From IMG/VR virus record IMGVR_UViG_3300031539_000026: a DNA stretch of 62,273 nt; one strand, given 5' to 3'. This stretch comes from a virus. A program made the position numbers and the translations under genes. The notes under the pieces were generated by a model. That model had not been told where the DNA came from. It searched no databases and saw only the letters and a program-made list of their open reading frames with translations. Shown here one piece after another: positions 1-62,273 of the stretch (its first letter is position 1; every line of letters begins with the position of its first letter).

Positions 1-333
1 GATTGTTATTGCAAGCATACCTTCCGGGGCCTGCTTACTGCTTCCGTGTTCAAGCTCCTCGATGTAATCGAGATTGTTTGAAATCCAAACGACTTGGAAC
101 GGGGGAAGTCCAACCAAGGCGTCCGCTACCTGAGCCTTGAACCTGCTGCGTATCGCGTTGGCTATTGCTGTCTTTGTCATTCAATCACCGTGAACATATT
201 CCTGAGCTCTTCGATTGTTATTGCAAGCATACCTTCCGGGGCCTGCTTACTGCTTCCGTGTTCAAGCTCCTCGATGTAATCGAGATTGTTTGAAATCCAA
301 ACGACTTGGAACGGGGGAAGTCCAACCAAGGCG
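1..333. repeat. Left-end direct duplication: 1-121 is identical to 213-333 (offset 212 bp)
   Basis: Read directly: gattgttattgcaagcat...caaccaaggcg occurs at 1 and at 213. The copies diverge at 122 vs 334. The 121/122 junction shares only ggcg with 62147-62150. Confidence 0.9.
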
Positions 334-3517: not shown

Positions 3518-3672
3518 TGCGTTTGCCTCATTACCATAGAGCAGTCTTCGTATTTTACTGGTGCAATGACTACGCCTTCTGCGTGCCTTAGTTTAGGATT
3601 GCCATCTTTGTCTTTTAGCTCAACGACGATTTCGCCCCTCAAACTTGTATTGTCTGTTTTTGTTTTACCCAT
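3514..3672 (-). CDS. Small hypothetical protein (52 aa)
   Basis: Hand-translated: MGKTKTDNTSLRGEIVVELKDKDG...SMVMRQTQ. Its start overlaps the end of the 1537-aa gene. Confidence 0.4.
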   Translation of the reverse strand: MGKTKTDNTSLRGEIVVELKDKDGNPKLRHAEGVVIAPVKYEDCSMVMRQTQ

Positions 3673-6600
3673 GCGTTTGCCTCATTACCATAAATGCCCA
3701 CGCGGCCTTCATTAGGGCCGTCAACTCGTGCTCTTCTGCATCCGAAATATTCATGCTGTCGTTTATCGACCGAATGGCCACAGATACTCTAATCATGGCG
3801 TCGAGAGTTCCGATAGCATCGCTCTGTGTCCGCAGATAATCGATGAGCTTTGTTACCGAATCGGTTATGCCGAGCGTGTCAGTCAAGGCTATGAGCCTGC
3901 CCAAAACAATGCCGTCGGTCAATCCCTCGGAATCGCTGATTATCCTGCTTATTGTAAAGAGGCTCGCCAGGGCGTCCGTCAAGCCAAGATTCTCCGAAAG
4001 AACTCTGAGAGCCACAAACACCCTCTCGGTACTGTCGCTCATGCCCAGGGCATTATTGATTGTCCTGAAGTAATTACCGACACCGTCGGTATCTAACACA
4101 TCCGTTATACCGAGCGAATCCGCAACCGTTCGCAGCACGGTCCAGATACGGCCCATATCGTCGGCAAGGCCCAGTGAGTCCGTTATCGTCTTGACGGCAA
4201 CATAAACGCGGGACGCCGAGTCGGTTATCCCGATTGAGTCGGCAAGCGACTTGCCCTCACCTTTGGATTGTGCGTCCGCGATACCTATATTATCGAGAAT
4301 CGCCCGAAGTATCACGAACAATGAAGCCAGCGCATCGGTCAGTCCTATCTCATCGTTTTGCGTTTTCACAATAGCCAGTTGCTTCGCGAAATCATCGGTC
4401 AGGCCCAAGGCGTCCGTTACGGACAATGCCCTCTTTAAGGTCAGGCCATCCGTCAAGCCCTCGCTGTCACTTATGAGCTTACTGATTGCAAAGAGGCTTG
4501 TTATCGAATCGCCCAAGCCGAGGTTTTCGGAAAGCACGCGAAGGACAATGAAATTTCTCGATGTAATATCGCTCAGATTCAGGGCGTCGTTTATTGTTCT
4601 GAAATAATTCCCTACGCCATCGGTATCTATTGCATCTTTAATGCCGAGCGAATCGATAACGGTTCTCAGTACCGTCCACACGCGGCCGATGTCGTCAGCC
4701 ATCCCGAGAGAATCGGCTATCGTTTTTAGTATTGCGTAAACATGGGTCGCTGAATCGGTCATGCCAATAGAGTCCGCGACCGTCCGCAAGATAGCCAACA
4801 AAGAGGTCAGGGAATCGCTTAGGCCAACAGGATCGTTCTGTGTCCTGAGAACAGCCAGCAGCTTCGTTAAATCGTCGGTCAGTCCGAGATTGTCCGTCAC
4901 CTTCAAAGCTCTGCCGAGCATGACGCCGTCCGTAATGCCTTCGTTATCGCTAACCAGGCGGCTCATTGCAAAAAGGGCGACAACGGCATCGCCGAGCCCG
5001 AGGTTTTCGGAAAGATCCCTGAGAACAACGCAGACTTTAGATGTGCTGTCAGTAAGGCCTATGGCGTTGTTGATAACTTTGACAATGTTTCCAACGCCTT
5101 CGTACTCCATTACGTCCGTAATGCCCAGCTCGTCGGCGACAGTTCTAAGCACCGTCCATACACGGCTTAGATTGTCGGTCAAGCCCAAAGAATCAGCTAT
5201 TGTCCTAAAAGCTGTATTGACGTTGGTCACTGAATCCGTCAAACCGAGCAAATCGGCAAGGGATTTGTGCTCGCCTTTCGAGACGGCATCGGATATGCCC
5301 ATCGTATCAAGAACGATCCGCAGAATTGAAAGCAAAGATGTCAGGGAATCGGTTAAGCCCAGTGTATCGTTTTGTGTTCGTAAAACGGTCAGCAGCCTTG
5401 TGAAGCTATCAGTCAGGCCCAGGCCGTCCGTCACCAACAATACTCTGCTTAAAACAACGCCGTCCGTTATGCCTTCACTGTCACTGATAAGTCGGCTAAC
5501 GATGAATAGTTTTACAACAGAGTCAGTCAAGCCGAGATTTTCCGATAAGGTCCGCAGGGCAATATGAATTTTGGAGCTGCTGTCTGTGAGCCCCAGGGCA
5601 TCGTTCACCGTTCGCACAAATGCTTCACCGCCGCCGGGAACGAAATCCTCGGACATAATGTCCGTGATACCGAGATCGTCAGCAACTAATCTGATTGCCG
5701 CCCATACACTTGACATGCTGTCGGTCAGGCCAAGTGACTCGGCAAGAACTCTTATAGTGATCTGCGTTTTCGTTACATCGTCCGTCATGCCAATCGTTTC
5801 GGCAAGTACGTGCCATTGGCCTTTCACGGAAGAGGCCAAATCAATCAAGCCTAACGACTCGGCTATTCTTGCGGCAATACCGGAAATAATGCCGGCGTCT
5901 GTCAGTCCGATCGTATCGGCTACTACCCTGTCGAGAACGCTAATGCTCGACGGCAAATCGGTTATGCCAAGTGACTCGGACAGAATCCTCAAGATGACAG
6001 TGCTGCGAACTGCATCATCCGTTAAGCCGAGCGTATCGGCGACAGTACGAAACTGGCCCTTGGTCCCGGCCATCGAATCGGTCAGCCCCAAAGATTCGGC
6101 TAATGTTTTGATGAATACTGCCGAAGCGACTTGAGCATCCGTCAAACCAAGCGACTCAGCCAATGTCTTTACGAATCCCGCCGAAGCAATCTGAGCATCT
6201 GTAATTCCCAGAGAATCCGCAAGCGACTTGCTTTCGCCCTTGTTCTGTGCATCAACAAGACCAAGAGTATCGGCCAGAATTCGCGGAATACCCTTTGTTG
6301 AAATATTCGCATCAGTGATACCAAGCGTTTCCGCCAGCGATCGCAATGCCGCGATGTCCCGGCTCTTGTCATCTGCAACGCCCATCGACTCATCGAATCC
6401 GCGAACTATTGTTTTTGTAGGTGTGCTTGCGTCGGTTACGCCGAGAGAATCGTTGATTGTACTGATAAATTCATTGAAGAAAGTCTGCCAACTGAGATAC
6501 GGATAACCGTCATTTTTGCCAGAGTCAATATTCCAATAGTCATTATTTGCAACATCATCGTGGGGATTGCCAACGAAGTCCCAAGGATTTGTAAGGCCAA

Positions 6601-8278
6601 CAGTATCGGTTTCCGTGAAGGTGGCATCATCCTTCATCTCGGCAGTTGTCTTGCCTGTGCCACCTTGACTTGTGGCCTGGTAGGAAGTTTGTGTATCCCA
6701 GAAAGAGTCACTTATATTTGGAGTAATATTGCCACCAATCAACCCTCCACCTTTTGTTGGTGTTGAAACATCTCCCGTCGAATAACATCGCCTTATAATA
6801 GCAGATGTATAGGTCGACCCTATTAAACCACCGGCTGTATCTGTTGAAGCCGTAACCGCTCCCGTAGCATAACAGTCGTGCATTTCAAATGAAACGGTGC
6901 CTGTAGATCCTGCAATTCCACCAATAATCTGGGGGCCTGTGACTGACCCACTCGCATAGCAACGATACAACTTGCTGTTATTCGCCTCACCAACTATTCC
7001 TCCTGCATATCCTTCAGAAACTGCTGTAACATCACACGTTGAATAACACTCAGTAAGAACAGGAGTACCGCCATAACCATATATTCCTCCAACATCATAA
7101 TTTCCATTGACAACTCCTGACGTGAAACAATTTTCTATGCTCCCCGTAGCTACAACACCGGCAATAACACCGACCCAGTCATCACCAGTAATATCAGCGT
7201 CCTCGATCGTAAGGTCGTAAACGTGTTTAACTCCAGTGCCTATTATTGAACCAAACAAACCTACAGCGGTTGTTGATGGACGGTTGATGTAAAGACCTGT
7301 AATTTTTTTTTCATTTCCGTCCAACACACCTGTAAAATCAATACTGTATGGGGTATGTCCTACCGGCCTGAATCCCGTCGTCCCAGGCCATTCATCCGAG
7401 TCCCAGTTGCCGGAATTCGGGTCGGCAGGTGTGGCATCTATGTCATTGGCGAGAACATAATTGACGGAGAGATTATCCTCCATTGCCTGGAGTTCATAGA
7501 TGTCGTGAATGTATATGGGAAGTACGATGCGAGAATCTGTCAGCCCCAGAGAATCGTTGATCGTGACCGCTTTCGGGCTCCATGATAACATTCTCGAATC
7601 CGTCAGGCCAAGGGAATCGCTGATTGTCCGAGACATAGTGCGAACAAGAGTCCTCGCATCCGTGATCCCCAGAGATTCAGCCAAAATACGAACAAGTGAA
7701 AGCAGCGAAGTCTTAGCATCTGTAACACCTATCCCATCGTTGATTGTTCTTTCAATTGGAGCAAGAGAATACGTGACTTCCATCGTCACATAATCAATGT
7801 AAACATTGGAATTATTGCCTGTAGGGATAACAGCAAGAGCCACACCGAAATCAGCATCCTTCACCCACGCAGCTGTTAAAGAATTACCCCAGAGATTGTC
7901 TGCTGCCCCTATTGTTATAACCGTCGGCGTCGTGACCGTAATGGGTATTGGTGTTGAAGCAAGGTTTGTCCCTACCTTCGCTCCATCGACATCGAGCAAT
8001 TGAGCCAACGCAATCCCGCAAGCACCTACCGTATAGTAAGCCTCGACCTTGACCGTGATACCGAGAATTGTCGCACCGGCCGGAATAGCGCTGAAGTCAA
8101 AACCCTTGGCCTTCAACACATAAGATTCGATACCGCTATCAAAAGCGGCGTCGTCAATATAGGAATAACTCCCTGTATTGTTTTTGATATTGTCCGGATC
8201 GATCCACGTCAAATGATCGTAGGGAGCCTCCGACGTTGTTGAAGCAACTGCCGGATATTTCGCCCCTGTAGTCGCCAT
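3665..8278 (-). CDS. Giant fibre/adhesin-like protein: N-terminal domain, GLUG-motif domain, then ~50-60 LGxTD repeats
   Basis: 1537 aa. GLUG-type units (GGIYG, AGGIVG, IGGIAG, AGGLIG, GGGLIG, each near C-Y-[AS]-[ST]-G) are followed by FWDTQTS...YPYLSW. After that comes a 19-21-aa repeat xxxRxhxDxLGhTDxxx, including four ~170-185-aa super-repeats. Confidence 0.8.
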   Translation of the reverse strand: MATTGAKYPAVASTTSEAPYDHLTWIDPDNIKNNTGSYSYIDDAAFDSGIESYVLKAKGFDFSAIPAGATILGITVKVEAYYTVGACGIALAQLLDVDGAKVGTNLASTPIPITVTTPTVITIGAADNLWGNSLTAAWVKDADFGVALAVIPTGNNSNVYIDYVTMEVTYSLAPIERTINDGIGVTDAKTSLLSLVRILAESLGITDARTLVRTMSRTISDSLGLTDSRMLSWSPKAVTINDSLGLTDSRIVLPIYIHDIYELQAMEDNLSVNYVLANDIDATPADPNSGNWDSDEWPGTTGFRPVGHTPYSIDFTGVLDGNEKKITGLYINRPSTTAVGLFGSIIGTGVKHVYDLTIEDADITGDDWVGVIAGVVATGSIENCFTSGVVNGNYDVGGIYGYGGTPVLTECYSTCDVTAVSEGYAGGIVGEANNSKLYRCYASGSVTGPQIIGGIAGSTGTVSFEMHDCYATGAVTASTDTAGGLIGSTYTSAIIRRCYSTGDVSTPTKGGGLIGGNITPNISDSFWDTQTSYQATSQGGTGKTTAEMKDDATFTETDTVGLTNPWDFVGNPHDDVANNDYWNIDSGKNDGYPYLSWQTFFNEFISTINDSLGVTDASTPTKTIVRGFDESMGVADDKSRDIAALRSLAETLGITDANISTKGIPRILADTLGLVDAQNKGESKSLADSLGITDAQIASAGFVKTLAESLGLTDAQVASAVFIKTLAESLGLTDSMAGTKGQFRTVADTLGLTDDAVRSTVILRILSESLGITDLPSSISVLDRVVADTIGLTDAGIISGIAARIAESLGLIDLASSVKGQWHVLAETIGMTDDVTKTQITIRVLAESLGLTDSMSSVWAAIRLVADDLGITDIMSEDFVPGGGEAFVRTVNDALGLTDSSSKIHIALRTLSENLGLTDSVVKLFIVSRLISDSEGITDGVVLSRVLLVTDGLGLTDSFTRLLTVLRTQNDTLGLTDSLTSLLSILRIVLDTMGISDAVSKGEHKSLADLLGLTDSVTNVNTAFRTIADSLGLTDNLSRVWTVLRTVADELGITDVMEYEGVGNIVKVINNAIGLTDSTSKVCVVLRDLSENLGLGDAVVALFAMSRLVSDNEGITDGVMLGRALKVTDNLGLTDDLTKLLAVLRTQNDPVGLSDSLTSLLAILRTVADSIGMTDSATHVYAILKTIADSLGMADDIGRVWTVLRTVIDSLGIKDAIDTDGVGNYFRTINDALNLSDITSRNFIVLRVLSENLGLGDSITSLFAISKLISDSEGLTDGLTLKRALSVTDALGLTDDFAKQLAIVKTQNDEIGLTDALASLFVILRAILDNIGIADAQSKGEGKSLADSIGITDSASRVYVAVKTITDSLGLADDMGRIWTVLRTVADSLGITDVLDTDGVGNYFRTINNALGMSDSTERVFVALRVLSENLGLTDALASLFTISRIISDSEGLTDGIVLGRLIALTDTLGITDSVTKLIDYLRTQSDAIGTLDAMIRVSVAIRSINDSMNISDAEEHELTALMKAAWAFMVMRQTHG

Positions 8279-11317: not shown

Positions 11318-11725
11318 TTACTCCTGTTTTTCTTTGTTCGTTTCGGGATTCTCGTGCTTTTGAATTGCCTCTACGATATCCACCTTCTTTGTTAATTTGG
11401 ATACGTCAATCTTGTTTACTTCGGCGTATTCTTTCAGCTCTGGTATGGTCATACTCTCAATTGCTACGCTGATGGGTTTGGATTCGCCCGGCTCGGGCTC
11501 AGGCTCAGGCTCGGGCTTGGGACCATCCAGATTCGCAGTCCCGGATCTCAAAATATCCATAGCATCGACCGGCCAGAAACGTACCCATTTCTTTTGAGAT
11601 ATGAGCCAAAGACTGACCTTGCCCCTTTCGTCAATAGCTTCGGTAATCGGCCTTGCACTTTTTCTCGCCGCTTCCATTGCCCCATTCTTTTGTGCCAACA
11701 TGACATCGACATTGATATCGACCAT
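11318..11725 (-). CDS. Protein with (PE)n linker and C-terminal Rho-N/SAP-like HeH motif
   Basis: PKPEPEPEPEPGE linker, then TIPELKEYAEVNKIDVSKLTKKVDIVEAIQKHE. Confidence 0.5.
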   Translation of the reverse strand: MVDINVDVMLAQKNGAMEAARKSARPITEAIDERGKVSLWLISQKKWVRFWPVDAMDILRSGTANLDGPKPEPEPEPEPGESKPISVAIESMTIPELKEYAEVNKIDVSKLTKKVDIVEAIQKHENPETNKEKQE

Positions 11726-11747: not shown

Positions 11748-12947
11748 TTAACCTTTACAGATTCGGCCCTGGTAATTGATACCCGTGCCGACATGCGTTC
11801 CGGCAACCACCGTCCAGAGCCTGAGATACTGATATACCGTACCCATAAACTCGTTTCTAAATGGCATACTGATTCTGCCGACAGGCGTGACTACATCTCC
11901 GTTAATGGCTGCTGCCGCCCCAACGGCAACGGCGGCAATATCCGTATATACGCTGGCAAAGGTCGCGGAGTTTGAGCCCTGTAACAGAATATCGTATCGC
12001 TCATCGCCATCGGCACCGGCTCTCACGGCGCCAAGCGTTGTCGCATCAAATACGTTTGTTCCCGCTGCGAATGTTTCGGTAGTTGCTATCGCATCGCTTG
12101 CAACTCCAGGTGTCTTGGCCGTCAATATAGCATCATCTGAGGCAAAGGCGGCAATATCGACTGTCGGGTGCGCCGTCATGTTTGCGGCGTATCCGGTTCC
12201 GGGAACTCCGCCCAGAACAAAGGCTTCTATTATGCTGGCCTGAGTATCGGCGACCAAAGTGCCGACTTCGATATGCCCGTCGATATTATCCAATGCACCG
12301 TTGATATCGAAGTAATACACTTTCGTATCAATTGTCATCGTGTCGCCATCAGCGCCGGCCGCCGTCGTTCCGAGTGTTCCGGCGTTAAAGATATTGGTTA
12401 CTGCCGTGAACGTTTCGGTTGTTGCTATCAAGTCGCCGGCCACGCCTGTGGCTATTGCGGTAACGATAGAATCATCCGCAGCAAACGCCCCCATTCTGAC
12501 CAAAGGATGCGGCGATGTAGAGCCTGCGAAATATTCCGTGCCTTCCGTACCCGTTCCGTTGATTGTGGCCAAAATGTTTAGCTGTGTTGCGGCAGCAGTA
12601 GCGCCAATTAGAATATCTTCCACCTGGATCGGCACGTCTTTGAATCTGTACACAGTTGTGCCGATTGTCATGGTATCATTGTTTGCATCGACGGGATTCA
12701 CGTCAAGCGTAAGCAGGCCCTGCGATGAATTGCCGCCCGTGCAGTTCGTATCGAGAGTCAGCGTGCCCTGTGCCGCCGATCCATCGACGTCAATGCTGGC
12801 AATATCAATAATAAGCTCACAATCAATAACGCCCGCACCGACATCGAGTCTCTTTGCAACACCGCCCACAAGGGCGGCTGCCGATGCAGCAATGGCGCCT
12901 GCATCCTTCAAAATTAAATCCGATTCGTAAGTAAAGTTGTGTCTCAT
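11748..12947 (-). CDS. Capsid decoration-like paralogue carrying a ~258-aa insertion module
   Basis: The N-terminal ~56 aa and C-terminal ~85 aa align with the 144-aa protein at 13036-13470 (GAIAASAA..; ERYDILLQ vs EMYDIIAQ; PFRNEFMGTVYQYLRLWT vs PFDNEFCGTIYPYVRLYT). The middle matches the tail tube insert. Confidence 0.65.
   Translation of the reverse strand: MRHNFTYESDLILKDAGAIAASAAALVGGVAKRLDVGAGVIDCELIIDIASIDVDGSAAQGTLTLDTNCTGGNSSQGLLTLDVNPVDANNDTMTIGTTVYRFKDVPIQVEDILIGATAAATQLNILATINGTGTEGTEYFAGSTSPHPLVRMGAFAADDSIVTAIATGVAGDLIATTETFTAVTNIFNAGTLGTTAAGADGDTMTIDTKVYYFDINGALDNIDGHIEVGTLVADTQASIIEAFVLGGVPGTGYAANMTAHPTVDIAAFASDDAILTAKTPGVASDAIATTETFAAGTNVFDATTLGAVRAGADGDERYDILLQGSNSATFASVYTDIAAVAVGAAAAINGDVVTPVGRISMPFRNEFMGTVYQYLRLWTVVAGTHVGTGINYQGRICKG
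12006..12779 (-). repeat. Shared module copy 1 (two ~105-aa DTMTI...ATTETF repeats), related to 60740-61498
   Basis: The nucleotide and protein similarity to 60740-61498 was read directly, for example atcgaagtaataaac.ttcgtatcaattgtcatcgt.tcgccat. Confidence 0.85.
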
Positions 12948-12979
12948 AATTTTTACCCTTATGCCTGGATATTGAGATT

Positions 12980-13014
12980 AGAAACAAAAGCTTGCCGGCA
13001 ATAAACCGGCAAGC
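12980..13014 (-). terminator. Rho-independent terminator
   Basis: Minus sense: GCTTGCCGG-TTTATTG-CCGGCAAGC followed by TTTTGTTTCT. Confidence 0.65.
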
Positions 13015-13035
13015 CGACCTTGTTTGTTTACGTGA

Positions 13036-13470
13036 TTAGCCCGCTCTTTTTGCCAGCCTTGCGGAGTATGTAATGCTGTTCGTGGCACCGACCGTAACGG
13101 TATAAAGTCGGACATACGGATATATCGTTCCGCAGAATTCGTTATCGAACGGCAGGATATATCGACCGATAGTATCGTCCCTGTTGGAATCCGACCGCTT
13201 TGTCTCCATAGCACCTAAGCTTATGGCACATCTGTCAACAAGGGTTGCGGCGGTGCAGGCGAGGTCCGGCGAAAGCTGAGCAATGATGTCATACATCTCA
13301 TCGTTGCCGACAATATCCATAGCGGTAACGTCGATGATTATATCGCCCTGGACCAGCCCTTCGCCGATCAATGGAATAACTGTAGCGGCAGCAGAAGCGG
13401 CTATTGCCCCCGATGCCTTCAAGGTTAGCGTGGCATCGTCAACTGTGCGGTTTCTTAACATATTAAACAC
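13036..13470 (-). CDS. Capsid decoration-like protein (short paralogue)
   Basis: 144 aa, directly downstream of the major capsid gene. Paralogous to the ends of 11748-12947. Confidence 0.55.
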   Translation of the reverse strand: MFNMLRNRTVDDATLTLKASGAIAASAAATVIPLIGEGLVQGDIIIDVTAMDIVGNDEMYDIIAQLSPDLACTAATLVDRCAISLGAMETKRSDSNRDDTIGRYILPFDNEFCGTIYPYVRLYTVTVGATNSITYSARLAKRAG

Positions 13471-13527: not shown

Positions 13528-14475
13528 TTACGCAACGGCTACGGCATCGCTTATAGACCAAAGCCTTGCCGCGGCTCTCGGATGCTCGATGCAGATTCCG
13601 TTGTACCATTCGACGCGGGTCAGTTCGGTCACTGTCGCGGCCTGCTCGCCAACCATACGGACGTCAATGTTTCCATTCTGAATGCCCTCAATCATCCCAT
13701 CGCCGACCGATATGCAGTAAATCGAAGTTGCAGTGGCGGCGACTCCAACGTTGTTGGATACTTCAAGGAAGTTCAGAATATCGGCGCCGGTATGATCTCT
13801 GTCTGCGATAATAATCGGAAGCTCGTCGTATAACATGACCGCTTTGCCAAATTCGTCTTTGGTCCAGGTTATATTCCCACCTACCGCTGCTGTGCGGGCC
13901 GCAACGCTAAGACGCCTGCGCATTTTCTTGTTCATAATCAAATGCGTGGGATTATCGACCGAGTCAATCAATGTATCCAGGTTCAACAGCGACAAGGGAT
14001 CGCCGCCGTTTGTAGTGCCGTTGGCAGTCAACTGAGCGCCCGTCAATCTGACCTGCAGCCCGTCAAGACTTGCCGGAGTTGTGACCGAACTGCCTTTGAT
14101 GAAAGCCAGGGTCCATGCGTGGGCAAGCGCCTTGATCTTCATAATCTGGTGACGCTCACGGACTCCTTCGCCGCCGGTCTTGATTATGAACGGATCGATC
14201 GACAAGTCGCCGCCGGCAATTACAAGCGGCTCTACCTGCGGATTGATAATGCCCGTGCTTGCGGTATATCCAGCGTTGATTCCGCGAAATCCGATGCCGG
14301 GCAATGTTTGCTCCTGGTTATACGCATAGGCGTTGCCGGCGATATCCCTGAACGGCAATACCCTCAAGATGTCTGAGGACATGGCATACGTCTCAACAAC
14401 CGCCGAACGCTGCACTTCTCCTCGATTGATCATAAGCTTTGAAGCTTCAATCAGTGTCAAACTCATAACAGTCAC
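13528..14475 (-). CDS. Major capsid protein (HK97 fold family)
   Basis: 315 aa, positioned after the scaffold gene. Characteristic stretches: LPGIGFRGIN, LLNLDTLIDSVDNPTHLIMNKKMRRRL, RVEWYNG...AAARL. Confidence 0.85.
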   Translation of the reverse strand: MTVMSLTLIEASKLMINRGEVQRSAVVETYAMSSDILRVLPFRDIAGNAYAYNQEQTLPGIGFRGINAGYTASTGIINPQVEPLVIAGGDLSIDPFIIKTGGEGVRERHQIMKIKALAHAWTLAFIKGSSVTTPASLDGLQVRLTGAQLTANGTTNGGDPLSLLNLDTLIDSVDNPTHLIMNKKMRRRLSVAARTAAVGGNITWTKDEFGKAVMLYDELPIIIADRDHTGADILNFLEVSNNVGVAATATSIYCISVGDGMIEGIQNGNIDVRMVGEQAATVTELTRVEWYNGICIEHPRAAARLWSISDAVAVA

Positions 14476-16037: not shown

Positions 16038-17108
16038 CTAACCTGCTAACTTTTCAAGTTCCTTTAACGTCAATGGCTTATTCAATCGGTCGATGAACTC
16101 GTTTAGCTTTAATTGGCCGGACCGAAACATTTTAGCCCGACCGATACCCAGGGCATCGTTCTGCACTTCGGTATCCTGTTTTTTCAGCCAGGCCGGATAT
16201 GTTTGCGTTGCCGGTACCTGCCCGTTCATCGAAGCCCTCGTGCCGGGATCGAGTTCCTTAGCGTTAATTCCAAGCTCCTTCCAGGACCGCAAAACCGGGG
16301 CGTCGGAACAGCGGCAGCCAAAATGAGGAATACCTGGTTTTTCGCCAATATCGAATACCTTGCCATCAAGGTTCATACAGGTCATACATGTTCTTGAATC
16401 AAGCGTAGATATCCACTGAATCCCCTTAACAACATCGCCATTGGCGGCATAAACCTCATTCCTTGCCGCGTGCGCCACGTTGCTTACGCTTGTTCTGACA
16501 ATAGAATTAAGATTGTGCCTTGGAGCGTTCAAGATGCCGTCCGTGTATTGAGCGGCCCGCGTCCCCTTGATAACCCGAACAATATCAGCAATGCCCTTGC
16601 CCTCAATCATACCTGATTGTATTGCCCGATTGACATTGAAGGTAGTATCTCTTGCCAACTTATCAAACCATTCTTTCACCAAGGCCCCCTCCATCGGTTG
16701 CTTAGTCACAATGGCCTTTAGAATATTTGAACTTGGTGCTACAAAATCAACAGCTATCGGCGTGATATTTTCAAGAGTTTTTATCAGCCAGGAAGATTCG
16801 ACTTTAGCAAAATCCCTCAACTGCTCGTACAGCTTTGCTTCCATCACCTTGTATTCCTCTTTTACCAGCTCGCCGTTGTACTTAAAAAGTATCTGCATCT
16901 TTTTGGATTTTAACGTTATTCTTTCAAGGCTTTGCTCTATCTTTGCGATAAGCTCCGGCGCCAGCGTCCTGTTGAATTCCGTCAAAATGTCGTTGACCAT
17001 CTGCGTCTTGTAGCGCTCCAGGTACAGAGCGTGACGTATGGCCCGGTCTGCGATTAGCTCGTTGACGGACGTTGGAAGTTCGGGAAGTTTTGGCAGATTC
17101 TTAGCCAT
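16038..17108 (-). CDS. Head morphogenesis protein, Mu gpF / SPP1 gp7 family
   Basis: WISTLDSRTCMTCMNLDGKVFD...PHFGCRCS matches the Phage_Mu_F core. Adjacent to the portal gene. Confidence 0.85.
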   Translation of the reverse strand: MAKNLPKLPELPTSVNELIADRAIRHALYLERYKTQMVNDILTEFNRTLAPELIAKIEQSLERITLKSKKMQILFKYNGELVKEEYKVMEAKLYEQLRDFAKVESSWLIKTLENITPIAVDFVAPSSNILKAIVTKQPMEGALVKEWFDKLARDTTFNVNRAIQSGMIEGKGIADIVRVIKGTRAAQYTDGILNAPRHNLNSIVRTSVSNVAHAARNEVYAANGDVVKGIQWISTLDSRTCMTCMNLDGKVFDIGEKPGIPHFGCRCSDAPVLRSWKELGINAKELDPGTRASMNGQVPATQTYPAWLKKQDTEVQNDALGIGRAKMFRSGQLKLNEFIDRLNKPLTLKELEKLAG

Positions 17109-56961: not shown

Positions 56962-58980
56962 TTATAACAAATTCCGGTTGCGGATTGCGTGCTGGATGAA
57001 AGCCTTCTCGCCCTCTTTGCCTTTAAGCAACTCGATCTGCGCTTCTCTGTCGTTTTTGACGAACACGATCTTGACCGGCGTAGGACTGACCGTAATGTTC
57101 GGCTGGCCTCCGGAAGCTTCCACGCCCAGGCGTCCGCCCCTCATTCTTCTTACTGGCATGGCGGCCTCAAGCCCGCCTTCACCTATGAGCCCGGTTTTTC
57201 CATCGGCCATCGGGAAATATGTTGGTCTGTCGAATATGTCACCGTTTGCCATAGGAACTACACGGCCCATGTTGAACACATTGCCCATCGCATGAGGCAC
57301 ATAAGTCGGGGCCTTAGCAGATCCAACACCAACGGGATAACCAGGAGGTCCGCCGCCCATAATAATACCCATTGTTTTCATCATTATCGCCCGGGCCATC
57401 ATTTCAGAAGCCATCCGGCCGAACGCTTCACCGACGTTAACGAAAAAGCCAGTCATGGCATCCTTCCAGCTCGCACCCTGGGAAATCATGCTGAAAAATG
57501 AATTACCCATAGAGCTTTCAATCGAGTGGGCGGCATCTGCGAACCTTTCAGAAATATACAAAGATGAATCCTCGAAATCCTCTTGCAACTCAGCGTTATA
57601 TACTTTCATCGCATCGAGACGCGAACGCTTCAAGCTGAGTATTTCTTCGTTGAGAATTATTTCAGCCTTGAAGACTTGACTTAAAACATTGGTATGCGCA
57701 TCCCTGTATGCTTCCAGGTTTTTGATCCTCTCCATCCGCGTCAAGTAATCCATATTGCGGACACTTTCAATGCCCTGCTGCGTATCCTCTATAACCCGCC
57801 TTTCAAACTCCTGCCGCTTTTTAATATCTTCCTCTGTTTTCTGGAGCGGCGATGTTTGGGAGACTGCCGGGCCTGCATAAACTTCCTGGAGCCGCCTGTT
57901 CAATGCCGCTTCCTCCGATTCTGCCGGAAGTTGTCCCTGCTTTTGTGATGCAGTCATATAGGTATGGCGGGCGACATCGTCGTCTTTTTCTGCCTGCGTC
58001 ATCATTGAAGGGTGCGTAAGGGCATTGCCCTGCCGGCGAGCTAATTCGAGTTGTGTATTTGTTACGCCCATAGCCCTCTGCAGGCGCCCGCCCATTTCTT
58101 TGGCCACTATGCCTATACTGTCAAAGCCTGAAAATATTTCAGCCCATCCCTCACTCTGAATCCTGAAAAATTCCTTCCACGCGGGGCTATGCTTATTGAC
58201 TTCAGTGAGAACATCTGACAGAGCAACCATTAACGGCCCGCCCAACTCCGTGCGTAATTCTGTGAAATTTGCATTGAGGCGTTTGACCTGGTTGGCGTAA
58301 TCGTTCATCGACCTGATAGCGTCGCCCTGGGCGTCAAGAGTGCCTTTTTGAATCAGCGACATGCGAAGCTGGACCTTTTCCAGGTCCGTCAAGTCTTTGT
58401 ATTCCTTCTTGAGTCCCCGGCTAAATGCTTCCTGGGCAAGGGCCGTCTCGCTGATGATAATTCCGTACTTGCGCACGGTTTCATGGTTGCCCACAAGCGC
58501 CGATGTGAAGTCCCGAATTACTTCGTCATCAGCCTTGTTGCTGAAACTTGCCACATCAACTGCAAGCGTTGTGAGATCCATCGAAAGCCCCATAGCCTCT
58601 TTTCTCGCAAAGCCCAGGGGCACAAACAGGTCCTGCAGGCCGGCCATCCATTTTTGAACATCCTGCGTTGCCCGTCCAACAGAATCGCCAAATTGCTCGG
58701 ACCATGCAGCCGCCTCTTTTGAATTGTCCTTGAAAACAACGTTGAATTTGTTCATTGTTTCCTGGGCGTCGGAGGCCGAGTCGATGAATTTCTTGAGCGT
58801 GTATATCGCACCGCCCGCACCGCCGAACATCAGAATGCGCCTCATGGCACTGGCAAATCCGCTCTCGATGGACTTGGTTGCGGTCCCCGCGCTGCGCTTC
58901 ATCTTCCCTGTAGCCCTGTCGAACTCCGCAGCTCCCCGCGTCGCTCCTCTTGCATCAATCGCCGCTCTTAGTGTCGCCAT
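56962..58980 (-). CDS. Tail tape measure protein
   Basis: 672 aa. TP901-type core: ...DAQETMNKFNVVFKDNSKEAAAWSEQFGDSVGRATQDVQKWMAGLQDLF...VGNHETVRKYGIII. Confidence 0.9.
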   Translation of the reverse strand: MATLRAAIDARGATRGAAEFDRATGKMKRSAGTATKSIESGFASAMRRILMFGGAGGAIYTLKKFIDSASDAQETMNKFNVVFKDNSKEAAAWSEQFGDSVGRATQDVQKWMAGLQDLFVPLGFARKEAMGLSMDLTTLAVDVASFSNKADDEVIRDFTSALVGNHETVRKYGIIISETALAQEAFSRGLKKEYKDLTDLEKVQLRMSLIQKGTLDAQGDAIRSMNDYANQVKRLNANFTELRTELGGPLMVALSDVLTEVNKHSPAWKEFFRIQSEGWAEIFSGFDSIGIVAKEMGGRLQRAMGVTNTQLELARRQGNALTHPSMMTQAEKDDDVARHTYMTASQKQGQLPAESEEAALNRRLQEVYAGPAVSQTSPLQKTEEDIKKRQEFERRVIEDTQQGIESVRNMDYLTRMERIKNLEAYRDAHTNVLSQVFKAEIILNEEILSLKRSRLDAMKVYNAELQEDFEDSSLYISERFADAAHSIESSMGNSFFSMISQGASWKDAMTGFFVNVGEAFGRMASEMMARAIMMKTMGIIMGGGPPGYPVGVGSAKAPTYVPHAMGNVFNMGRVVPMANGDIFDRPTYFPMADGKTGLIGEGGLEAAMPVRRMRGGRLGVEASGGQPNITVSPTPVKIVFVKNDREAQIELLKGKEGEKAFIQHAIRNRNLL

Positions 58981-59679
58981 ATCTCAAAAACTCATTATCC
59001 ATTGCCGATATATATTCGAAAAAATCTCTCGGTTTCCTCACTTCGTAGAGCCTGGCATATTCCATAATGTCGCCGATGCTTAACTGACAAGGTCCGTAGC
59101 CGTACTGCCTGCGTCCATGCAATGACCAGAATGCGTTCCATACCCAGGCAAGGTCATCGTAAAGCTCCGGCATGTTTTCCCACGCCGCCGTATGCTTGCC
59201 CGCTTTTGCTCTTGATTCAAGGAATTTGACATTCTTGCCCCATTCGAGCTGCCACTTTAGGCAGCTAATTAGTTTTTTGCCGATTCCTTTTTTTGCTCTT
59301 CGAAGAACAAATTGGCGGACGCGGAAACATCTATCACGAAGTCATAGAAAATCACGTTGGCCGGGTCGCTGATAATCTCCAGTGCCTTTTCCGGTGTGTA
59401 CTTGATCGTCTTGCCGTCGTCATCCTCCATGCCCTTCCAGTCGCGGATCAAACAGTGCGCCACGGTCTGCTTCATCAGAGCTCTAAGCGTTTCCCCGTCA
59501 ACCATCTTTCGCCTTAACTGGCCCAGGATCGGCTCGCTGATTTTTTCGTAGTATTTATTGAATTCGGGATTGTGCATCCGCGCTATCTTAACCTCGATCC
59601 CGCCGCCGAACTTATGCCATACCCCCTCAACTGACTTTTCGTTATCAAGCCTGAATTGACTGAGACTTCCCATGACCAA
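58955..59679 (-). CDS. Tail assembly chaperone G-T-like fusion made by -1 frameshift
   Basis: The -1 frame is open from the slippery site through MPELYDD...(58955-59173 ORF). Hand-translated: ..QKKGIGKKLISCLKWQLEWGKNVKFLESRAKAGKHTAAWENMPELYDD. Confidence 0.65.
59269..59679 (-). CDS. Tail assembly chaperone (gpG-like, zero-frame product)
   Basis: 136 aa between the tail tube and tape measure genes. Confidence 0.7.
   Translation of the reverse strand: MVMGSLSQFRLDNEKSVEGVWHKFGGGIEVKIARMHNPEFNKYYEKISEPILGQLRRKMVDGETLRALMKQTVAHCLIRDWKGMEDDDGKTIKYTPEKALEIISDPANVIFYDFVIDVSASANLFFEEQKKESAKN
59287..59293 (-). promoter_or_regulatory. -1 programmed frameshift slippery heptamer A_AAA_AAG
   Basis: Minus sense: GAG CAA AAA AAG GAA. 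The zero frame places A AAA AAG exactly as X XXY YYZ, 6 codons before the stop. Confidence 0.7.
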
Positions 59680-59851: not shown

Positions 59852-61780
59852 TCAGGCTGCGAACCGAACGATCCTGATCGTAATTTCTTCCGTGCCGTCC
59901 ATGAACGCCTGGAACGTGCAGGGCACCTTGAAATCGTCGCCAATGCCGGCCCCGGAATGCCTCTGGCCGTCCGTTATCTTCAAGCCCGGCATATCGAAAA
60001 CGTAACCGTTGCCGTCTGCATCCTGAAATACCTTGGCAAGCGAAGTGTCATCGAAATTCAGATACTTGTCGTAAAGCGTTTTGCCCTCGTAATAGGCCGT
60101 AAAAGAACCCGAGACATTGATACTGTTCGCTCCGAAGCTGAACGGCCCAAGTGTCCCAACTTTCGACCGTTCTCTCAGGTTGTTATTGATCGTCAAAGAG
60201 CAATCGAGTACGTCGATAGCGATAACGTTTTCGTAGATTCCCTGAACGTGGTCGATGGAGTTCATAACGTCGTTATCGTTCGGCTCTTCGTACCCGTCCC
60301 CGCCGCTTACCGTCTCGGATGTCTCTATCTGGCCCATCATGCCGAAGCTGCCGGTGATAATCCCATTCGTCCCGACAGTTAGTGTCATCTGATTCAGCAT
60401 ACAGCCTTTGAACAATGCAAGCTCGGTTGTCAGGTCTGAATATGTACGCTCGAAGTTGAATGAATTCTTTACCACGCCGTTGACAATAGAGCTGCCCTGT
60501 TTGATTGTGCGTGAAGTTCCGGCGGCTTCCGTCACGAGAGTCCCGTAAACGATTATCTTGGAAGCCGTGGCCGATGCGACCTTGAAGTAGCCGTTATCTG
60601 CTGTGGCTGTAAAGCTGGATGCCCTGATCCATTCATTCGCAACTACGCTTCCGAATCCATTGGCTGAGTCATTGAAAGAACTGTCACCGCTTGCCACGCT
60701 GATCGTAATGGCAGTGACCGTAACCGGGACCGTCCAGCCTGCCCCTGCCGTAGTCGTCCCGAGTGTCCCTCCGTTAAAGATATTGGTTACGGCTGCAAAC
60801 GTCTCGGTAGTTGCAATGGCATTGCCGGCCAGGCCGGGCAACATAGCCGTCAATACGGCAATATTTGTGGCAAAGGCGGCAATTGAGACGGTCGGATGTA
60901 ATGTCATGTTTGCAGCGTATCCGGTTCCGGGAGTTCCGCCCAGTGTGATAGCGTTTACTATATTGGCCTGAGTATTCGCAACTGCCGCCCCGACCTCAAT
61001 ATGACCGTCGATGTTATCCAGCGCACCGTTAAGATCGAAGTAATAAACCTTCGTATCAATTGTCATCGTATCGCCATTGGCCCCGGCCGCCGTTGTCCCA
61101 AGCGTGACAGCATCGAAAATGTTCAATCCAGAATCGAAGGTCTCTGTTGTTGCTATCGTATCGCCGGCTACGCCTGTGGCTATCGCGGTAATAATAGAAT
61201 CGTTCGCAGCAAATGTCCCCATTCGTACAAGAGGGTGTGGAGTTACGGTTGCCACGTAATATTCCATTCCCGCGGTCCCGGTACCATTGATCGTGGCGAC
61301 CAGGTTCGCTTGCGTAATCAATGCAGTTGAACCGATTTGAATATCATTGGCTTGGGTCATAATGGTTTTGAATCGATACGCAGTTGTGCCGATTGTCATA
61401 GTATCGCCATCGATGGGATTTACATCCAACGAGAGTAAACCCTGCGATGAATTTCCGCCCGTGCAGTTCGTATCGATTGTCAGCGTTCCCTGGGCCTTGA
61501 CGTTCGCAGACATCAAAACGCACGCCAGAAAATCGTCAAAGCTTCCGTAGCTGAATTCGAAATCCAGGCCGCCCGATACCGCCACCCTTGTTCTCGACAC
61601 GCCGACAATCTGCCTGTCCGGGCGGATCTCGTTACTGTTGGCAATGTCCGTATCCTGTTTGAGGCTTTCCCCGGTAAGCCTCACTTTCTGCAAATTGCAG
61701 CCAGTCACCTGCTGGCCGAACGTGGATTCCTGAGCGTATGCCAGCAATACTCTTGAAATGTCACTTATGGTCATAATCAT
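59852..61780 (-). CDS. Major tail (tube) protein carrying the ~253-aa shared module
   Basis: 642 aa, directly upstream of the chaperones. The flanks look like a tail-tube family. Residues ~95-347 match the insert in 11748-12947. Confidence 0.65.
   Translation of the reverse strand: MIMTISDISRVLLAYAQESTFGQQVTGCNLQKVRLTGESLKQDTDIANSNEIRPDRQIVGVSRTRVAVSGGLDFEFSYGSFDDFLACVLMSANVKAQGTLTIDTNCTGGNSSQGLLSLDVNPIDGDTMTIGTTAYRFKTIMTQANDIQIGSTALITQANLVATINGTGTAGMEYYVATVTPHPLVRMGTFAANDSIITAIATGVAGDTIATTETFDSGLNIFDAVTLGTTAAGANGDTMTIDTKVYYFDLNGALDNIDGHIEVGAAVANTQANIVNAITLGGTPGTGYAANMTLHPTVSIAAFATNIAVLTAMLPGLAGNAIATTETFAAVTNIFNGGTLGTTTAGAGWTVPVTVTAITISVASGDSSFNDSANGFGSVVANEWIRASSFTATADNGYFKVASATASKIIVYGTLVTEAAGTSRTIKQGSSIVNGVVKNSFNFERTYSDLTTELALFKGCMLNQMTLTVGTNGIITGSFGMMGQIETSETVSGGDGYEEPNDNDVMNSIDHVQGIYENVIAIDVLDCSLTINNNLRERSKVGTLGPFSFGANSINVSGSFTAYYEGKTLYDKYLNFDDTSLAKVFQDADGNGYVFDMPGLKITDGQRHSGAGIGDDFKVPCTFQAFMDGTEEITIRIVRFAA
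60740..61498 (-). repeat. Shared module copy 2, related to 12006-12779
   Basis: QGTLTIDTNCTGGNSSQGLLSLDVNP...DTMTIGTTAYRFK...ATTETF...DTMTIDTKVYYFD...ATTETF. Confidence 0.85.
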
Positions 61781-61801: not shown

Positions 61802-62209
61802 TTACCCGATATCATCGGCATAGAACGGGCATTCGACGTTAATCTGCCATTCATCGCCGCTCCTGCCGCGAGGGTATGTTGATGGAGTCCTAAATGTGAC
61901 CCCGGTGTCCGTAACTCGCTTAAAAGCCGTTTCGACCGCATCGGCCACCTCTAATAATGCTCCATCCCCCTTGCCGACAGGACCAAATAACTGTGCTATC
62001 ATAACCCCCGGCGTCCGGCCCCTGTTTCCCGTCGGGCTTCCTACCGACTTTTGAAGAGTTTCCCCAAACTTAACAGTCAGCCTGCACCATTTCGCATTGT
62101 CCGGATTGTCGTATTTTTGATTGTCGTATTGAGTGCCCAAAGACAGGGCGTCCGCTACCTGAGCCTTGAACCTGCTGCGTATCGCGTTGGCTATTGCTGT
62201 CTTTGTCAT
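61802..62209 (-). CDS. Tail terminator-like protein (DUF4128-like)
   Basis: 135 aa immediately upstream of the tail tube gene. Its N-terminal coding sequence is duplicated at 118-180. Confidence 0.55.
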   Translation of the reverse strand: MTKTAIANAIRSRFKAQVADALSLGTQYDNQKYDNPDNAKWCRLTVKFGETLQKSVGSPTGNRGRTPGVMIAQLFGPVGKGDGALLEVADAVETAFKRVTDTGVTFRTPSTYPRGRSGDEWQINVECPFYADDIG

Positions 62210-62273
62210 TCAATCACCGTGAACATATTCCTGAGCTCTTCGATTGTTATTGCAAGCATACCTTCCGGGGCCT
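62147..62273. repeat. Right-end 127-nt exact copy of 118-244 (circular closure / terminal redundancy)
   Basis: ggcgtccgctacctgagcc...accttccggggcct read at both places. The last 32 nt also equal 1-32. Confidence 0.9.

Follow-up and report, generated by a model that had tools for sequence, protein, structure and literature searches.

The viral genome record IMGVR_UViG_3300031539_000026, analysed here over its whole length of 62,273 bp (the window), carries all of its genes on the minus strand and encodes the same two-repeat protein module twice: in a small protein of the head module, open reading frame (ORF) A (11748-12947, 399 aa), and in the major tail tube protein, ORF B (59852-61780, 642 aa). 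ORF A consists of a ~140-aa backbone and an insert of about 257 aa; the protein P0001, identical to it, is on record from 4 contigs. Its paralogue ORF C (13036-13470; 144 aa, or probably 141 aa from the Met at 13461) lies directly downstream of the gene for the major capsid protein (MCP) and has the same backbone without the insert. BLASTP of A against B aligned A aa 59-301 with B aa 96-336, with 180 of 243 residues identical (74%, E 4e-120), and BLASTN aligned 12054-12774 with 60783-61496 at 73% identity over 720 nt. Formal alignment therefore recovered the two internal repeats of A, the similar insert in B and the nucleotide-level similarity that had been described in the original prediction for this DNA, and the boundaries that we derived for the shared cassette (12018-12773 in A, 60743-61495 in B) agree with the ranges 12006-12779 and 60740-61498 given there.

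Each cassette is made up of two short leader strands followed by two repeats of ~112 aa, delimited by repeat alignment and profile. In A, the leader (aa 59-86, 12690-12773) holds two short 'QGTLTLDxNP' β-strands, which are modelled at residues 2-6 and 14-22 with a predicted local distance difference test score (pLDDT) of about 96, and is followed by repeats A1 (aa 87-197, 12357-12689) and A2 (aa 198-310, 12018-12356). The corresponding parts of B are a leader with two 'QGTLTxDxN' strands (aa 96-121, 61418-61495) and repeats B1 (aa 122-232, 61085-61417) and B2 (aa 233-346, 60743-61084). A1 and B1 belong to one type of repeat (type 1) and A2 and B2 to another (type 2). The leader is the most similar part of the cassette, with 92% amino acid and 82% nucleotide identity between A and B, and the Cys of the 'NCTGG' motif common to both leaders is the only Cys in the module. 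The repeats pair in register, at 68% identity for A1 with B1 and 73% for A2 with B2, as against 45-54% for the other combinations. This indicates that what is shared is the two-repeat unit and not a single repeat, and that the cassettes of A and B are co-orthologous, with one origin as a two-repeat unit. Searching a six-frame translation of the window with the repeat profile detected exactly these four copies and no others.

The backbone that carries the cassette in A is split into an N-terminal part (aa 1-58, 12774-12947), which ends in the strand preceding the insertion point, and a C-terminal part (aa 311-399 and the stop codon, 11748-12017), which is predicted to be the five-strand portion of a β-sandwich. 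The original prediction that the ends of A align with ORF C was upheld: the C-terminal part matched pairwise with E 1e-14 and 34% identity, and the N-terminal part, weak in the pairwise comparison (E 0.08), aligned unambiguously in a family alignment of 48 sequences. In that alignment the whole cassette appears as a single clean insertion between '...IDxxAIDx' and 'xxDExYDI...'. We found 50 homologs of ORF C without the cassette, of 135-168 aa, none of which (0/50) had a Pfam domain. An AlphaFold2 model of whole A placed residues 11-52 and 312-399 in a β-sandwich with pLDDT about 90 (about 91-93 for aa 11-50, 88-96 for the C-terminal part), and the insert was modelled poorly.

The top Foldseek match of this backbone model in the PDB was chain H of 3j4u, Bbp16 of Bordetella phage BPP-1 (probability 0.90, E 0.061, target TM-score (TMt) 0.37, 92 columns, root-mean-square deviation (rmsd) 4.3), in an alignment limited to the C-terminal half of the backbone because of the insert. 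Bbp16 is a jellyroll capsid cement protein of 140 aa whose gene directly follows the MCP gene bbp17 (PMC3863775). ORF C resembles it in size (141-144 aa) and in the position of its gene directly after that of the MCP (13528-14475; phrog_212, E 6e-65). Bbp16 carries no insert, whereas the phage in the window has two paralogues, one plain (C) and one decorated (A). Several observations weigh against a Bbp16-like identity. The structural match itself is weak (E 0.06, TMt 0.37); the similarity of the N-terminal motifs extends over 28 columns with an hhalign probability of 15%; the Pfam Bbp16 model PF21190 matched neither A nor C at E≤1 and matched one of 35 backbone-family members, with E 0.25, where the control Bbp16 itself scored 176 bits; and BLASTP of the window MCP against BPP-1 Bbp17 showed no similarity. 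The MCP scored 18.2 bits (E 0.0012) against PF20911 GP7, below the cut-off of 27, and a link to the BPP-1/epsilon15 MCP lineage, sought by BLASTP and by PDB sequence search, gave no matches. Considering gene position and size together with the structural model, we regard the A/C backbone, with moderate confidence, as a probable Bbp16-like capsid cement or decoration protein. The earlier description of A as a capsid-decoration paralogue is in this respect consistent with the location and size of the genes, but its support from the fold comes down to that weak top match, and the Pfam model for Bbp16 does not recognise it.

The identity of the second host protein is more firmly defined. ORF B matched the Phage_tube_2 family PF18906 with 106.2 bits (cut-off 27, E 3e-30), in a match split around the insert, as well as phrog_290 (E 2e-51) and the solved 307-aa tube protein 8xan_B ('Major tail structural protein'; E 2.8e-29, both halves aligned). 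Its gene stands in the order tail terminator (61802-62209, phrog_179), tube, tail assembly chaperone (59269-59679, phrog_313) and a 672-aa ORF in the position of the tape measure (56962-58980), where a syntenic relative has a PhageMin_Tail protein. These matches identify ORF B as a genuine Phage_tube_2 protein of the tail tube. The N-terminal part of its tube domain (aa 1-95, 61496-61780) matches residues 2-85 of 8xan_B, which align with B aa 6-89, and the C-terminal part (aa 431-642 and the stop codon, 59852-60490) matches residues 92-305. The cassette thus lies between residues 85 and 92 of 8xan_B, just past the outer helix, at a site where this solved relative has no insert. Directly after the cassette, at the same loop, B has an extra segment of ~84 aa (aa 347-430, 60491-60742) that is absent from 8xan_B, is kept in related tubes and gave no Pfam match.

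A comparable loop has been described in the tube protein YSD1_22, in which 'domain2', a single β-sandwich that contacts the neighbouring subunit, is inserted between α1 and β4 (PMC8718954). The cassette of B occupies the type of loop that bears domain2 in YSD1, and differs in comprising two leader strands, two α/β repeats and the further ~84-aa segment, which may itself correspond to a YSD1-type domain2. A literature search for 8XAN found no paper.

We next consider the fold of the module. AlphaFold2 modelled it from a 28-sequence alignment with pLDDT 93.8 and a predicted TM-score (pTM) of 0.84, as two leader strands followed, in each repeat, by a β-hairpin, a strand, a 13-residue helix, more strands and a short helix. 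According to this model the module is an α/β domain and not an Ig-like sandwich. Searches of Pfam, PHROGs and NCBIfam with the whole proteins, the module alone, 28 module segments and 45 single repeats returned no credible match. The Pfam scans of the module and the 28 segments were read to E≤5, and at this threshold there were no matches (0) to Ig-like or FN3 families (Big_1, Big_2, I-set, FN3). An all-β two-sheet sandwich was also rejected on structural grounds: every repeat contains helices, and Foldseek matches to antibodies had probabilities of 0.1 or less and rmsd above 10. Neither the module nor a 45-sequence profile had a significant match in PDB sequence searches, and the marginal matches, to an acylphosphatase (0.13), a PNPOx-like protein (0.012) and the BON-like region of Rv0899 (0.03), were not relied on. 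Foldseek of the module model against the PDB returned nothing at E<0.1; the best match was 8fqc_I1, a baseplate chain of phage Milano (E 0.34, query TM-score (TMq) 0.31). The same search against BFVD detected 13 predicted viral structures at E<1e-3, down to 1e-13, among them uncharacterised proteins of Rhodobacter phage RcTitan and phage PhiJL001 and others labelled major capsid, major tail and baseplate J-like. A literature search for the repeat domain also found no paper. The fold predicted for the module is apparently undescribed. The view expressed in the original prediction that the fold could not be placed stands for Pfam, PHROGs, NCBIfam and the PDB.

The module is acidic (pI about 4.05), lacks Trp and consists of about 47% Thr, Ser, Ala and Gly. 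A carbohydrate-binding module (CBM) was considered and rejected: there was no CBM match in Pfam, no Trp, and Tyr and Phe lie by sequence mostly at conserved core positions. In three other proteins with the repeat, short matches to PF05354 (Phage_attach, the lambda gpFII family) occurred at or near repeat junctions (P0280 aa 986-1059, P0187 aa 477-512 and P0225 aa 811-836), with 30.6 bits in P0280, above the gathering score of 26. Being short, these matches were not used.

The idea that the module is private to this phage did not survive an exhaustive HMMER search with the repeat, which detected 4,972 representative clusters at E≤1e-3 and 2,722 at E≤1e-10. These about 5,000 clusters are spread over many virion proteins and flagellins and contain 1-13 repeats per protein. 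The host backbones include Phage_tube_2, tail sheath, DUF2793, DnaT_2-type adaptor-like, DUF2460, hub and Rcc01698-type tail proteins, and complete flagellins; single-linkage clustering of the flanks merged too many backbones and was dropped. Within the tube family itself, three proteins of about 640 aa (P0113, P0115 and P0068) carry the repeat C-terminal to a complete Phage_tube_2 domain, at aa ~390-500, whereas it occupies an N-proximal loop in B, so that this family has gained the domain at no fewer than two positions.

Among 50,697 GenBank phage records, the sole sequence match was the major tail structural protein of Xanthomonas phage vB_Xar_IVIA-DoCa5 (UYA98692.1), annotated just as putative. 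This Phage_tube_2 protein has one repeat at the same loop as B (43% identity) and no ~84-aa extra segment, and the MCP of DoCa5 is homologous to that of the window (28% identity to the DoCa5 major head protein, E 6e-20). The protein encoded after the MCP in DoCa5 was examined as a candidate homolog of the A/C backbone, and no homology was detectable. The tubes of the cultured relatives of DoCa5, Xoo-sp2 (85% identical) and PA_LZ03, have no insert. The module is therefore optional and mobile. Because both the A/C backbone and Phage_tube_2 exist without it, as seen in the 50 plain backbone proteins and in 8xan_B, Xoo-sp2 and PA_LZ03, the module is an insert that is integral to neither family, a point singled out beforehand in the original prediction as decisive.

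The repeat is also found in flagella. Flagellins P0187 and P0263 have Flagellin_N and Flagellin_C domains above threshold with 9 and 6 repeats, respectively, between them, and P0263 is encoded in a fliC-flaG-fliD-fliS locus on a 1.2-Mb contig of an Acidobacteriota metagenome-assembled genome. Giant flagellins of Acidobacteriota/Terriglobia (L007 6001-9276; L008-L012) range from about 590 to about 1,500 aa with up to 9 repeats, in a locus beside chemotaxis genes. The same repeat thus fills the interval between Flagellin_N and Flagellin_C that is taken in other flagellins by the hypervariable outer domains D2, D3 and D4, among which there are sheath-forming and adhesive ones, and in both contexts the insert is a hairpin-like excursion from the core of a polymer. 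ORFs A and B differ from these in being virion proteins, and no solved flagellin outer domain matched the module model. We also looked for a link between the flagellin hosts and the bin of the phage and found none: the flagellins are from Acidobacteriota, and the contig is binned as Sedimentisphaerales.

Comparison across the family revealed a regularity in the leader. On both the head and the tube backbones, proteins with one repeat have one 'AQGTLTLDTNP' leader strand and proteins with two repeats have two. By motif count, the number of leaders equals the number of repeats in 61 of the 65 proteins with one repeat and in 50 of the 63 with two, and close members with more repeats agree (four and four in P0016 and P0018, five and five in P0171). 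The regular expression used for the leader misses strands in divergent multi-repeat members, and the rule is established only for proteins with one or two repeats and for a few close members that have more. Insertion into a loop and the hairpin topology of the flagellins both require the chain to return to its point of entry, and we infer an outward course for the leader strands, alongside the stacked domains, with the chain then coming back through the repeats. A bolder extension, which we find rather doubtful, is that the module represents an undescribed fold built as a 'ladder', in which n leader strands ascend and n domains descend. It would then be a universal plug-in module of outer coats, fit for any surface loop, that has spread through capsid cement, tube, sheath, adaptor and baseplate proteins of many phages and into giant bacterial flagellins, and that gene conversion keeps similar between the head and tail copies within a genome.

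We then asked how the two copies in the window are related in time. The pairwise comparison proposed in the original prediction gave, alongside the 74% amino acid identity, a synonymous divergence (dS) of about 1.25-1.27 and a ratio of nonsynonymous to synonymous divergence (dN/dS, ω) of about 0.14. There was no stretch of low synonymous difference (pS) between A and B, and the longest identical DNA run was 22 nt. The copies are old, and both are constrained by purifying selection. The claim that one module was copied between head and tail genes accordingly stands as to a single origin, with exchange seen in a sister phage (below), but not as a recent event.

In the clade of the phage, all head proteins have two repeats, and the tubes have two in the closest relatives and one in more distant ones; on a contig of a syntenic relative, k141_1420483, a two-repeat head protein and a one-repeat tube occur together. 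The repeats separate into the two types with bootstrap support of 100/100, and those of single-repeat tubes are type 1. Repeat 2 of the tube is 75% identical to repeat 2 of the head protein, as against 49% to the single-repeat tubes. At synonymous positions, A and B are closer (pS 0.61) than A and a distant orthologous head cassette (0.74). Only A, the orthologues closest to it and all of the two-repeat tubes share the double leader with 'NCTGG' ('NCTGGNSSQG'); in the remaining head orthologues the motif reads 'NPTGG', and the leader of single-repeat tubes is single. These observations are most parsimoniously explained if the tube gene had a resident single repeat that gave way to a two-repeat cassette of the head type. 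Two points weigh against this reconstruction: the direction of transfer depends on parsimony and on nodes with weak support (30-46/100), and the cassette may have come from a related phage instead of from the same genome.

The same data bear on whether a third source, for instance another phage, supplied the cassette to the head protein and to the tube independently. The family moves very readily between backbones, the divergence of A from B (74% amino acid identity) slightly exceeds that of A from several of its orthologues (77-89%), and the nodes that join tube repeats to particular head-protein subclades are weakly supported, all of which speak for separate gains. However, the head and tube cassettes of the clade have the same double leader, including the unusual 'NCTGGNSSQG', the type-2 repeat in our sample is otherwise found in head proteins, and the sister phage shows direct exchange between the two loci. 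We therefore consider independent acquisition improbable.

That exchange was detected in a phage about 89% identical to the one in the window (IMGVR_UViG_3300031673_000370), in which the cassettes of the head protein gene (L014 1916-3118) and the tube gene (L018 1495-3426) share an identical run of 182 nt against a background of about 75% identity. The tract is a mosaic: the head copy has the tube-like 'GAATANTQ', and the tube copy has the head-like 'SIVEAFVLGG...AALMTAHP'. An identical mosaic tract of this kind is best explained by gene conversion between the head and tube loci. Both exact proteins occur on five contigs each, the longest of 64,411 bp. Weighing against the generality of this process, the tract was seen in a single phage lineage and in metagenome assemblies only.

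Assembly error was considered as the source of the similarity between A and B, in the form of a chimera or a duplication error in a metagenome-derived contig. One short contig does resemble a join of tube and head through the repeats: P0011 (497 aa, on a 1,673-nt Joint Genome Institute (JGI) contig) has a tube-like N-terminus (48% identity to B aa 35-109), three repeats and a head C-terminus (66% identity to A aa 307-398), and may be a genuine recombinant or else the product of misassembly across the shared repeats. However, 27% of nucleotides differ between the two copies in the window, in a coherent codon pattern; several contigs of different origin encode exactly these proteins, and orthologous pairs are present in independent assemblies. 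This recurrence across assemblies refutes an artefactual origin, to which we attach a practically negligible probability.

Taken together, the module is an optional outward-type domain cassette on polymer-forming proteins that is under purifying selection and is exchanged by recombination. From the classes of protein that carry it and the topology of the flagellins, we infer that it is exposed on the virion surface. We propose that the ~110-aa repeat represents a large uncatalogued family of autonomous accessory domains that face outward. It would travel as a cassette, n short leader β-strands followed by n repeats, and be inserted in the termini or surface loops of proteins whose polymers form virions or filaments. 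In the phage of the window such a cassette would have entered the probable cement paralogue A and the loop past the outer helix of the tube protein B, the tube having acquired the head-type two-repeat form by recombination and displaced its resident single repeat. Both copies would then have been maintained by purifying selection, with gene conversion between the loci continuing in the clade. Hundreds of copies on the head and along the tail might build a multivalent acidic outer layer giving weak, reversible adhesion to surfaces or to polymers of the host envelope, in the manner of Ig-like domains on Hoc, lambda gpV and T5 pb6. We lean modestly towards this reading as a whole, comprising an accessory outward-facing cassette of single origin, a tube that received the head-type cassette and an adhesive layer on head and tail. 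On the last of these parts, that the module forms a multivalent adhesive layer on both structures, we are close to evenly divided, since it is argued from analogy with Ig-like accessory domains (PMC8718954) and with flagellin outer domains (PMC8931119). The absence of Trp, the probably small number of exposed aromatic residues and the pI of about 4 are atypical for a carbohydrate-binding surface and weigh against this reading.

The analogy concerns architecture. T4 Hoc carries Ig repeats. On tail tubes, Big_2 domains are found on lambda gpV and T5 pb6 and a Big_1 domain on the YSD1 tube (PMC8718954). Like these, the module is a small autonomous outward addition to head-decoration and tube proteins, dispensable for the core fold, variable in number and present on both head and tail. 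It differs from them in being α/β with two helices per repeat, where Ig-like domains are all-β sandwiches, and in lying in an internal loop with matching leader strands rather than being appended at the C-terminus. The comparison with Ig-like domains drawn in the original prediction is thus apt as an analogy, but does not extend to the fold.

The main rival of the adhesive layer is a structural coat, which agrees with the data as well as the surface adhesion suggested in the original prediction does. In this role the module would have no external ligand and would self-associate across neighbouring subunits into an outer lattice that stiffens or protects capsid and tail. Giant flagellins carry 6-9 copies in their outer region, and some flagellin outer domains dimerise into a sheath (PMC8931119). 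The tube loop is the one that in YSD1 bears domain2, with its inter-subunit contacts (PMC8718954); the putative backbone in the head is a cement-type protein, the internal motifs are strongly conserved (ω about 0.14), and the acidic, aromatic-poor composition together with the flagellin context keeps such a coat model alive. On the other hand, copy number (1, 2 or at least 4) varies freely among otherwise orthologous proteins and the module is absent in close viable phage relatives, neither of which is expected of a load-bearing lattice, and a cassette that works on icosahedral and helical structures as well as on baseplates is less likely to depend on a specific lattice contact. The variable copy number and the lack of the module in viable relatives favour an accessory function, and we consider the structural coat less likely than the adhesive layer.

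A dense acidic layer could alternatively act as a shield or decoy, masking conserved surfaces of capsid and tube from host proteases, defence sensors or grazers. The very acidic composition, rich in Thr, Ser, Ala and Gly, and the rapid turnover of copy number are compatible with this, as is the presence of the module on the outer regions of flagellins, which are classical variable, immune-exposed surfaces (PMC8931119). However, selection on the cassettes is purifying and not diversifying (ω 0.14). We also know of no such environmental pressure described for sediment phages. We regard this explanation as very unlikely and retain the accessory adhesive cassette as our preferred interpretation.

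A direct repeat of 32 bp at the termini of the window (1-32 and 62242-62273) suggests that it is probably a complete circular phage genome, and the head module (about 10-19 kb) and tail module (about 50-62 kb) run contiguously through the window ends. Between the head-tail adaptor and the tail terminator, within the structural module, is a 1,537-aa ORF (3665-8278, minus strand) whose sole match was phrog_12240, of unknown function; a relative has a syntenic ORF of 1,460 aa (L002, L005). Just downstream of ORF A, a 135-aa ORF (11318-11725, minus strand) has a (Pro-Glu)5 linker, and its C-terminal ~40 aa match phrog_3281 ('endonuclease VII') and phrog_10541; judged by sequence, this part is suggestive less of a nuclease than of a small helix-hairpin motif that binds DNA or protein. 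The Mu-F-like head morphogenesis gene beside the portal encodes 356 aa in the window (16038-17108) and 727 aa in a relative (L004/L005 5264-7447), where the protein has a weak intein-splicing match; the extra length may represent an intein insertion.

Accessory display domains on virions were already known, and are believed to adjust both the sites at which phages adhere and the duration of their persistence. To our knowledge, nearly all that is known of them comes from Ig-like folds. What is apparently new here is an undescribed fold, a very wide distribution that includes flagellins, the leader-strand rule and the evidence for gene conversion between head and tail. The module adds a second large, uncatalogued family with the same architectural role on heads, tubes, sheaths, baseplates and flagella, and with it hundreds of 'hypothetical' inserts in metagenomic virion proteins become annotatable. 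The correspondence between leader strands and repeat number is a testable design principle for display modules that can be inserted into loops, useful in phage display engineering, and DoCa5, with the module, and the 85%-identical Xoo-sp2, without it, form a tractable test system. The conversion tract of the sister phage offers a concrete route by which surface modules may move, and stay similar, within one genome.

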